Of a stretch of DNA of 39,910 bases, positions 37,926 through 38,909 are shown in pieces (position 1 is the stretch's first letter; each line of letters opens with the position of its first letter). The translations under genes and the position numbers were made by a program. Source of the DNA: a virus; the UHGV virus genome UHGV-1354558, one strand, 5' to 3'. The notes under the pieces are model-generated. The model did not search any database. It was not told the DNA's origin and was given only the letters and a program-made list of their open reading frames with translations.

Positions 37926-37954
37926 TTGACTTTTTGAATAAAGTTGGGTAAATT
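37926..37954 (+). promoter_or_regulatory. late promoter PR' (-35 TTGACT, 17-nt spacer, -10 TAAATT) with qut-like region
   Basis: TTGACT-N17-TAAATT followed by TTGACTCAACGATGG matches the lambda PR' and Q-utilization region. Confidence 0.7.
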
Positions 37955-37990
37955 TGACTCAACGATGGATAAATGCACTCGTTAAATAAA

Positions 37991-38018
37991 GCCCTGAGTT
38001 AATAGCTCGGGGCTTTTT
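37991..38018 (+). terminator. intrinsic terminator close to PR' (tR'-like)
   Basis: Hairpin GCCCTGAG-ttaatag-CTCGGGGC (one G-U pair) followed by TTTTT, about 30-55 nt downstream of the predicted start. Confidence 0.6.
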
Positions 38019-38909
38019 CATTTCTGCAATCCGGTCAGGACTTTCGAGTTAATGCGTGCTGCACGACACGTTGACACTCATACGCGAGAGTCCTGAGCCA
38101 GATTGAAGGCTATCAGGTAAGGGCATATCGACGCACTGATAGGGCTGGATTGGAAGATCATTCAGAGACCCGGCAGACAGATGTGTTCTTTCCGATGGTT
38201 TTCGTAAGCGACTTTGCGGTTTTTTAGAAACTGATCACAAAGGTAAATGCAAACGAAGAAATGTATCTGGCCGTAGCTTAACCGCTAAACACCAGTGAGG
38301 TATTCCAGTTCCTCATCAACGAATCTGGCGCACTGGCCCGGTGTGATTAATAATGGGCACACAACAGGTAAGAGCATTAAAGAACTGGCAAAGAGCTTAA
38401 CGGTCTGCGAAAGCATTTCTTAGTGGCACAACTGGCCGGTACAACTGAGTGCTCTTTCCGGTGTGGTGAATGCGCAGGCTGATGCGCGCAGGAGAGCTTC
38501 GGAAGAACAAGGTGCCTGTATACAAGCCGGAGATCAGCGCCGGCCACCACAGCCAAATCCACCCAGAGCAAAACCGTTGTTCATCCTTACCATTCCCTCA
38601 GTATTTTGGGCTACAACCCTCAGCCCATTTTTTAAAGCGTACTTCCACCAAGAACCAGACCTAACCAACTCATTGCTGACACTCTGTGGATACGGTTGTC
38701 TAGTGCGCTTTAAAAAAGAAAACCCAGCATCAATGGCTGGGCTTCGTGATATGAGCGGCATGTATTGTTGGCGCAATCCACGCCTGATTTGCTCATGAAT
38801 GCGGTCACGAACAAACCCGTTACAAATCAACCGTAACCCGGATTTGTTCGAGCGACCATATCCATAATTCCTAATTAAATAGAGCAAATCCCCTTATTGG
38901 GGGTAAGAC

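Follow-up and report, generated by a model that had tools for sequence, protein, structure and literature searches.

Gene Q and gene S (38910-39233) of the virus genome UHGV-1354558 are separated by 1,026 bp, and the question that this locus raises is what such a long interval contains. We have analysed the whole stretch of 39,910 nucleotides (nt) in which it lies, hereafter the window. A preliminary description of the locus had proposed that the interval might be a recombination joint or perhaps an unannotated small RNA region. The latter idea was right but underestimated the contents, which comprise a gene resembling transfer-messenger RNA (tmRNA) and several hairpin modules. The gap is best explained as the untranslated leader of a Q-dependent late operon, built from exchangeable cassettes, and the ~0.85 kb past its early terminator is a non-coding structured RNA leader. 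At the heart of this leader we have found a conserved, structured element of 174 nt on the plus strand (38196-38369), overlooked by the earlier reader, which corresponds to an mRNA-like domain only and which its sequence allows us to identify with confidence as a relative of the tmRNA message domain.

The element was defined by a covariance model (R1), by covariation and by the statistics of its tag frame. It begins with an invariant 5' GUUUUCG, followed by a candidate pseudoknot 1 (PK1, 38197-38243), the resume codon GCA at 38249, a tag frame (38249-38281, ANEEMYLAVA plus UAA), a helix 5 whose loop contains the stop codon (38267-38295), pseudoknot 2 (PK2, 38296-38328) and pseudoknot 3 (PK3, 38329-38358). 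The window tag reads ...GGUAAAU GCA AAC GAA GAA AUG UAU CUG GCC GUA GCU UAA. The resume codon thus comes after ...GUAAAU, in which U at -5 and A at -4 agree with E. coli tmRNA, and the family consensus AAAGAUAAAU-GCAAACGA aligns with the E. coli sequence AAAAAUAGUC-GCAAACGA. Reading of the window and of the consensus revealed no AUG, GUG, UUG or Shine-Dalgarno sequence ahead of the tag frame. By eye, most members have an in-frame UAG eight codons upstream of GCA, which Felix O1 lacks. The program ARAGORN reports a "resume consensus" in the copy of phage Moogle.

We have then compared the tag frames of 128 copies, obtained from IMG/VR with a pattern that fixes the first 8 tag bases and from reference phages. 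All 128 showed exactly 10 codons followed by a stop. Their 32 DNA versions use TAA, TAG and TGA as stops and specify 18 distinct peptides that fit AN[DE]xxx...[AV]A, with every peptide ending in AA or VA (among them ANDDVVLMAA, ANDEQFLAVA, ANDNVFLAVA, ANDDLMLMAA, ANDSEIRVAA and ANDTEFKAAA). The entropy in these pattern-retrieved copies was 0.78, 0.65 and 1.24 bits for first, second and third codon positions, respectively. In an alignment of 36 diverse sequences the tag columns were free of gaps, with indels in both flanks. Ten codons were also present in 13 of 13 further copies, seven found by BLAST and six being prophage copies from a pattern scan of bacterial genomes that the covariance model confirmed. 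The former included a P1-like copy (ANDDLMMVAA), an SSU5-like plasmid and phage Cyrano (ANEEVYLAVA), N4-like copies (ANDDVILMAA, ANEEAYLMVA), one from Chaseviridae (ANDNEMRAAA) and one from a Cronobacter T1-like phage (Drexlerviridae, ANDDLMLMAA); the latter carried ANDDVVLMAA (twice), ANDDQFLAVA, ANDDLMLQAA and ANDDYKLAAA (twice). The substitution pattern is coding-like, and the tag frame looks translated.

The secondary structure was evaluated on the 36 diverse sequences, with slid pairing partners and 500 shuffles as controls. In the proposed structure, 89.8% of the cells were paired, against 31-46% with slid partners, and changes on both sides affected 123 cells, compared with 13-33 after sliding; neither value was reached in any of the 500 shuffles. 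In the outer stem of helix 5 all four pairs were changed on both sides in some sequences and 94% of cells were paired, whereas two of the four pairs were so changed in the inner stem. PK2 and PK3, both of the H-type, had stems with pairing of 96%, 99%, 98% and 84%; compensatory changes affected 13 of the 18 pairs and were seen in both stems of each pseudoknot. The counterparts of tmRNA PK4 and P2 are not present inside the conserved unit.

The kinship with host tmRNA was assessed with the same model. R1 matched the window only once (191 bits, E 5e-42) and gave no match in the Q-S segment of lambda (43800-45600). It aligned nt 80-137 of E. coli ssrA collinearly, over the resume region, the tag and helix 5, with 23.4 bits (E 8e-6). 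A BLAST comparison of the element with host ssrA detected no similarity beyond 13 nt at the tag start, and a recent copy of host ssrA was rejected on this basis. In Rfam, the best match of the window was tmRNA_permuted, with 19 bits for a gathering score of 47 bits (E 0.44); related loci gave 20.8-23.5 bits for thresholds of 50-84, in the tag region only.

A sensitive search with 38150-38620 matched 717 phage records. Nearly all of the matches fell in DNA without annotation, and they share a core at 38196-38369. These records span lambdoid, P22-like, T1-like, FelixO1-like, Vi1-like and N4-like phages, Chaseviridae, P1 and SSU5-like plasmids, and none of those inspected annotates the element. 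At 70-90% nucleotide identity, the resume context persists across nine phage lineages or more. Among 5,426 complete E. coli genomes, 747 contained the element, in most cases on a plasmid of 90-115 kb; two of these plasmids looked P1-like and SSU5-like on inspection. In species-representative bacterial genomes, the confirmed copies were all from Enterobacterales (Pantoea, Erwinia, Rouxiella, Pseudocitrobacter, Rosenbergiella). Pattern matches in Chitinophaga, Mesoflavibacter, Alkalibacterium and others were unconfirmed by the covariance model and were discarded as chance.

The element mostly lies beside tRNA genes and on the same strand. In Felix O1 and Moogle it is located between tRNA-Ile and tRNA-Arg(UCU), and in VLCpiS10a, swi2 and ZCKP8 just 5' of tRNA genes (tRNA-Arg and tRNA-Met in ZCKP8). 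In P1, the C1-controlled Pban promoters lie upstream, and the element is flanked by a "dicF-like region" on its 5' side and by tRNA-Asn/tRNA-Thr on its 3' side; there (AF234172; loci L154, 807-1089, and L131, 1100-1375) it starts 8 nt before the end of the terminator-ended "dicF-like region". A terminator hairpin is also found directly 5' of the element in Erwinia and Rosenbergiella prophages (L142, L144, L138). Sigma-70-like promoters, read by eye in swi2, ZCKP8, L114, L066, Moogle and an SSU5-like copy, set a putative start at (U)AGUUUUCG directly 5' of the element. On a Vi1-like (Ackermannviridae-like) IMG/VR contig (L086, 1118-1331, minus strand), an Rfam match to the small RNA family STnc100, just past its gathering score (48.7 bits for a threshold of 47), was noted ~1 kb downstream of the element.

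We have also looked for a tRNA-like half. ARAGORN predicted no tmRNA in the window, and neither ARAGORN nor Rfam gave a tRNA or tmRNA gene above threshold in the gap. Across 89 representatives, its sole tmRNA call, in swi2, was spurious, with another tag and a borrowed tRNA-Met, and no tmRNA was called in the Felix O1 tRNA cluster or in Moogle 1500-2700. Run on the whole Moogle locus, the program reported a 749-nt "permuted tmRNA" with the tag ANDNVFLAVA and the resume consensus recognised. We have rejected this call as spurious: its tRNA domain combines a stray tRNA-like piece with a portion of tRNA-Lys, and three tRNA genes lie inside the call. Lowered thresholds yielded many "permuted tmRNA" calls with the right tag and spurious tRNA domains taken from neighbouring tRNA genes, one of them within Q; these were likewise dismissed. 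The genome announcements of Moogle and Felix O1 mention an ARAGORN "ssrA" without coordinates (PMC4319497, PMC4392139), which presumably is a call of the Moogle type; the presence of the element would account for such odd ARAGORN "ssrA" calls in FelixO1-like genomes. The inspected region of the Moogle and Felix O1 records contains no tmRNA feature, and the Felix O1 genome paper is silent on it.

Scans for a T-arm followed by NCCA recovered ordinary tRNAs or non-conserved pieces, none with a G3-U70 pair. Several candidates were discarded as not conserved or devoid of G3-U70, namely the flanking arms as a P2 helix, module inserts with T-arms, the ...GCCGGCCACCA end, and GGCCGGU at 38434 pairing with 38538-44. 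In Moogle, the gap between tRNA-Ile and tRNA-Arg is 277 nt long and accommodates a promoter, the element and one hairpin, which makes it too short for an acceptor piece. Farther upstream, Moogle 1476-1545 (also locus L108) comprises a T-arm, ACCCTTC, G, CCA, aaca, GAAGGGT and a D-arm-like stretch; from its sequence it represents one circularly permuted tRNA-like gene or else a tandem of two fragments. It lies 528 nt upstream of the element and is the piece that ARAGORN uses for its spurious permuted tmRNA. As a partner it was rejected, being confined to Moogle-like loci. The element is therefore without a detectable tRNA-like domain.

We have next considered how the element would be expressed. 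Gene Q (37260-37883, plus strand) encodes a lambda-type late antiterminator, with 206 of 207 amino acids identical to lambda Q (99%). The PR' promoter with its qut site (37926-37966, plus strand) was recognised by a promoter scan and by alignment to lambda and HK022. It consists of a -35 TTGACT (37926-31), a 17-nt spacer and a -10 TAAATT (37949-54), and was the sole promoter-like site that the scan listed within 37200-39300. Both hexamers are the same as in lambda, and the Q-binding spacer has two mismatches, both as in HK022. By alignment, transcription would start at ~37961, equivalent to lambda 44587, which we take to be the lambda PR' start and which is consistent with a 194-nt 6S RNA. The pause-inducing element AACGAT (37961-66, +1 to +6) is identical to that of lambda, and the roles of qut, spacer and pause element are assumed here to be those in lambda. 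Similarity to lambda was 96% over 37800-37983 and ended at 37983, that is, at +23. An HK022-type intrinsic terminator, tR', then occupies 37988-38018 on the plus strand. Its hairpin (37988-38016, +28 to +58 with the T-run) has 13 pairs, six of them G-C, and is followed by TTTTT to 38018; the 65-nt start region folded at -23.3 kcal/mol (z = -4.85), with none of 200 shuffles equal to it. These results agree with the preliminary description as regards the lambda-like Q and PR'/qut, the divergence past the promoter and the intrinsic terminator soon after the start.

A lambda-type PR'/qut is thus joined at +23 to a short terminator of HK022 type, the activity of which we infer. Without Q, RNA polymerase would yield only a PR' RNA of 54-58 nt, and with Q it would read through. 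The suspected recombination joint found its place here, where lambda-type sequence ends and the HK022-type region begins. In contrast, the early terminator is shared with other phages. The PR' variant recurs in HK022 together with the hairpin, which differs by one stem change, before the alignment diverges, and the full interval is 98.5% identical to HK620 and HK633 and 99% identical to two E. coli chromosomes. An O26:H11 prophage has a lambda 6S-type sequence after PR' and, farther downstream, the same tmRNA-like element as the window. Because this prophage pairs the 6S-type module with the same downstream element, the two PR'-proximal modules behave as interchangeable cassettes, and from these sequences the joint at +23 is a mosaic boundary between them. 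In the HK620 GenBank record (AF335538, locus 2591-2633, equivalent to window 37976-38018), the tR'-type hairpin is labelled "qut; putative Q-utilization site", whereas the HK633 record places qut in the promoter spacer, as in lambda. The HK620 label can be corrected accordingly, since this hairpin is of the tR' terminator type.

Downstream of the terminator, the leader comprises a separate hairpin and hairpin modules on the plus strand. The former is a long hairpin at 38035-38096 with 12-pair arms (TCAGGACTTTCG / CGAGAGTCCTGA); its region (38028-38104) folded at -30.9 kcal/mol (z = -4.26, 0/200 shuffles). It is followed by module A (38110-38198), of the "CAGGTAAGAGCA...TGCTCTTTCC" type, with arms CTATCAGGTAAGGGCAT and TGTTCTTTCCGATGG, a fold of -32.6 kcal/mol (z = -2.55) and a 3' arm that adjoins the tmRNA-like element. 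Arms of this type enclose varied inserts at many related loci, with sequences that are altered yet complementary. The arm pattern of the modules around the element is CACAACAGGTAAGAGCA ... TGCTCTTTCCGTTGTG, with AAAGGGTA/TACCCTTT in Felix O1 and CTTCAATAAGCAC/GTGCTTATTGAAG in a Chaseviridae contig as altered, still complementary versions.

On the other side of the element lies module B (38358-38466), delimited by BLAST islands and motif coordinates, with arms at 38358-76 and 38449-66. These arms are two lambda islands (38360-78 and 38448-71, matching lambda 44787-44805 and 44845-44868), and the earlier reader had missed both islands and the fact that they form the arms of one hairpin. Between the arms lies a variable insert with a GAAA-capped hairpin, and the fold of the module was no better than that of shuffles (z = -0.78). 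Lambda retains exactly one module (44787-44868), which begins 7 nt past the end of 6S RNA. In a Pantoea prophage, the lambda version of module B comes after the element, and in swi2 the insert at this position holds the T-arm GGCGG TTCGACT CCGCA. RNase III processing sites are known in lambda late RNA (see the title of Daniels et al. 1988, a paper cited in PMC7547250); at a guess, these sites would be the module B-type hairpin.

The leader continues with a 3' block (38472-38549, plus strand) that comprises a pseudoknot-like unit (GCGCA/UGCGC and CAGGC/GCCUG), a hairpin at 38526-44 and CCACCA. It is the right end of a non-coding block of 363 nt (38189-38551) common to T1-like phages, 87.6% identical to swi2 and 80.8% identical to ZCKP8 in intergenic DNA. 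The homology ends after CCACCACA, always just past CCACCA. The block or its end was located in L004 (3009-3370), L005 (3001-3368) and L152 (680-890); its 3' end, ...GGAGATCAG..CCGGCCACCACAAC, recurs in the N4-like phage nithesis.

Other loci carry further modules next to the element. One is a hairpin with a conserved loop of ~26 nt, UCCCUUAUGGGGCUUGGCUUAAAUGCA, and covarying stems (Felix O1 ~1625-1680, Moogle 2165-2225, L060, L011), located 3' of the element in FelixO1-like phages and 5' of it in some lambdoid prophages; within this loop, the resume-site motif UAAAUGCAA occurs again. Another, 3' of the element in L013, L011 and L066, has the conserved form TTCGTGGGTAACAACGGGCAT..CGCCTTAGTAAATCCC...hairpin...CGTNAGCTCCACGAAAC and gave no match in Rfam. 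In its 3' part, ...CAGCTCCAC is similar to CCAGCTCCACCA, with which E. coli tmRNA ends, except that a helix closes it.

Taken together, a cassette-built leader, a tmRNA-like element within it and a role of this element in host trans-translation form a joint explanation to which we assign a probability of roughly 0.55, a little better than even. In the prophage, the element would stay silent until Q lets the polymerase pass 38018 and would then become abundant along with the lysis/morphogenesis mRNA, from which it might be freed where the adjoining hairpin or tRNA-like modules are processed. Lytic phages would transcribe it from a sigma-70 promoter of its own, with (U)AGUUUUCG as the RNA start. 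As it is without a tRNA-like domain, the element must use or disturb the host tmRNA-SmpB system. It could serve as a tag template in trans to host tmRNA-SmpB, so that rescued ribosomes would append a phage-specified tag. Docking would possibly occur through the invariant 5' end, (U)AGUUUUCGU(C), which in 33 of 36 members is a perfect complement, 8-11 nt long, of ssrA nt 96-106. The complementary stretch (host tag codons 3-6, GAC GAA AAC UA) was scored by exact-complement count and measures 8 nt in the window (38196-38206) and 10-11 nt in most members. We tentatively rank such a trans-acting tag template ahead of the alternatives of a decoy or antisense inhibitor, a two-piece tmRNA and a relic, while granting it clearly less than an even chance. 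The fuller proposal, a "template-only" tmRNA that in at least nine lineages hijacks host tmRNA-SmpB, possibly tethered by its 5' end, and swaps the host tag for a phage tag, is more doubtful.

Several points weigh against this proposal of a tag template. The element cannot act alone like known tmRNA, as it has no tRNA-like domain, and we know of no mechanism for a message domain working in trans without strong pairing to an acceptor piece. The 5' complementarity is only suggestive, because 4% of shuffles give a complement of at least 10 nt in ssrA, and the 5' bases could pair inside the element instead. The candidate PK1 was 84-86% paired with almost no covariation. With regard to the tag, most copies were gathered by the pattern that fixes its first 8 bases, and part of the conservation of codons 7-10 is structural, since these codons lie in helix 5. 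The benefit to the phage is unclear, given that phage tags resemble ordinary degradation tags. Finally, we infer the expression, processing and translation of the element from sequence.

The same 5' end is also compatible with an inhibitor. Here, a message mimic would titrate SmpB, S1 or RNase R, or the invariant GUUUUCG would pair with the host tag codons at ssrA nt 96-106 (33/36 members), so that phage products of broken late mRNAs would be neither tagged nor degraded, and translation of the tag would be unnecessary. Such a decoy or antisense RNA would need no tRNA-like domain, and none was found. It would also have a precedent in the tRNA-domain-only tmRNA of phage DS6A, reported to inhibit tmRNA (PMC4131195). 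However, it leaves unexplained the strict length of 10 codons, the excess of third-position changes, the conservative peptide pattern and the stop that is always in frame, and from established knowledge a duplex of 8-11 bp should not halt a translating ribosome. We therefore regard it as unlikely.

A true two-piece tmRNA, of which the element would be the coding piece while the acceptor piece is encoded elsewhere in the phage or formed by processing, would supply the absent half. Some neighbouring modules do have T-arms, as in swi2, where GGCGG TTCGACT CCGCA is followed by an acceptor-like strand; the shared 363-nt block terminates in CCACCA, and Moogle has its permuted tRNA-like piece 528 nt upstream. 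Yet no such piece is conserved with the element across lineages and none has G3-U70. The modules of the window, HK620 and VLCpiS10a have no T-arm, the permuted piece is restricted to Moogle-like loci, and several lytic transcription units are too short for an acceptor piece. This makes the two-piece alternative improbable.

We consider it just as poor a prospect that the element is the relic of a captured tmRNA fragment, kept as a stable spacer or processing platform with no role in ribosome rescue. Its usual location, a tRNA cluster or a leader with many processing hairpins, would suit such a relic, and lambda manages without the element while retaining one hairpin module. Nevertheless, a relic should gather frameshifts and stops, and 0 of the 141 copies read show any; in addition, it would not be expected to keep the resume context in at least nine lineages at 70-90% identity. 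Least credible of all is that the functional product is the ~56-nt PR' transcript ending at 38018, a small RNA acting like StxS in lysogens, with the rest being recombination debris: although promoter and terminator are good and strong, respectively, the module is kept in HK022 and StxS shows that PR'-tR' by-products can be regulatory (PMC7547250), the Rfam search found no similarity to StxS or another small RNA, the covariation-supported element downstream would go unexplained, and such a transcript is compatible with the proposed leader and tag template rather than a replacement for them.

The remainder of the gap was searched for coding potential. The four longest open reading frames (38463-38798 on the plus strand, 38534-38887 on the minus strand and two of 64 amino acids) had no significant match in Pfam or PHROG. 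The only match at E<=0.1 was DUF3326 (E 0.073, 12.5 bits for a cut-off of 25 bits), and these frames were rejected as protein-coding. The absence of a convincing reading frame before S, which the preliminary description had claimed, was thus confirmed, as was the lambda-like character of the last ~120 nt. The segment just 5' of S (38788-38909, plus strand) contains the S translation-initiation region, and BLAST showed 88% identity of 38788-39000 to lambda 45063-45276, running on into S.

Two terminator-like structures precede this segment. On the minus strand, the terminator scan and folding identified an intrinsic-terminator-like hairpin (38706-38745), with its stem at 38719-38745 followed by TTTTCTTTTTT on that strand, a T-run to 38709 and a fold of -14.4 kcal/mol (z = -2.9). 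This hairpin had been described before at 38711-38741, a few bases off. No promoter-like site able to feed it was found by the promoter scan of 37200-39300. On the plus strand, a weak hairpin with T6 (38607-38633, mapped from the HK620 record) is the one to which that record assigns the late terminator "tQ"; it folded at -8.4 kcal/mol (z = -1.48), 17 of 200 shuffles were equally good, and it was absent from the terminator scan list. A 12-bp inverted repeat, TTTTTTAAAGCG (38628-38639) and CGCTTTAAAAAA (38706-38717), encloses 66 bp and joins the T-run of the "tQ" hairpin to that of the minus-strand terminator. By its sequence, this arrangement looks like a face-to-face terminator pair or a small inserted element.

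What is new at this locus is a tmRNA-like RNA that is widespread, unannotated and devoid of a tRNA-like domain; the early terminator is ordinary. The element is carried by hundreds of well-studied phages (P1, Felix O1, HK620, T1-, Vi1- and N4-like) and about one in seven complete E. coli genomes, and its recognition closes a gap in the annotation of late leaders in lambdoid phages and of tRNA clusters in phages generally. It would also make the handling or exploitation by phages of ribosome rescue and tag-directed proteolysis directly testable. A conserved, tag-encoding message half without a tRNA half would be a new form of tmRNA, and if the "template-only" proposal is true, trans-translation would be reprogrammed in trans by a virus.

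The leader can be compared with those of other lambdoid phages. With lambda PR'-qut-tR' it shares the lambda-type Q, the PR' promoter with a Q-binding spacer and the AACGAT pause element. Past +23 it has no sequence similarity to lambda 6S RNA, and its terminator ends at ~+58, compared with +194 in lambda. With phage tRNA cassettes and clusters, as in Felix O1 and P1, the element shares niches and strand; ileZ-argN-argO of Stx phages is an example of such a cassette in a late leader. Nonetheless, the element is not itself a tRNA, as it had no tRNA match in ARAGORN or Rfam. A constitutive short transcript closed by an intrinsic terminator, predicted for the window, is common to lambda (6S RNA), Stx phages (StxS; PMC7547250) and HK022. 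StxS is 258 nt long and processed to 74 nt, whereas the window module is short and of HK022 type.

With E. coli tmRNA (SsrA, RF00023) the element shares GCAAACGA at the resume codon, with U/A at -5/-4, a 10-codon tag (ANDENYALAA in E. coli) with an AN(D/E) start and an (A/V)A end, a stop in the helix 5 loop and H-type pseudoknots 3' of the tag. It differs from it in having no acceptor stem, T-arm, G3-U70 pair or domain-closing P2 helix, in having only two supported pseudoknots, both after the tag, with PK1 unsupported, and in its length of ~175 rather than 363 nt. It also falls under every Rfam tmRNA threshold, and its nucleotide similarity to ssrA is limited to the tag start.

The tmRNA molecule is regarded as an indivisible hybrid of tRNA and mRNA, or as two pieces encoded together. 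In the two-piece tmRNAs of alpha- and beta-proteobacteria and cyanobacteria, the message part is separate from the acceptor part (PMC11915505). Their pieces are encoded side by side and joined by the acceptor stem and other helices, whereas no partner was found for the element. Mycobacteriophages and Bacillus phage G are the only phage sources of tmRNA in the tmRNA database papers, which also include the tRNA-domain-only form of DS6A (PMC4131195; PMC11915505); neither these papers nor full-text literature searches yielded a description of a message-only phage tmRNA. The tmRNA of mycobacteriophage DS6A has "no CDS", and a similar molecule was reported to inhibit host tmRNA (PMC4131195; PMC11915505). 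The DS6A molecule is the opposite half of the one described here, a tRNA-like domain without a tag, whereas the element of UHGV-1354558 is a tag without a tRNA-like domain.

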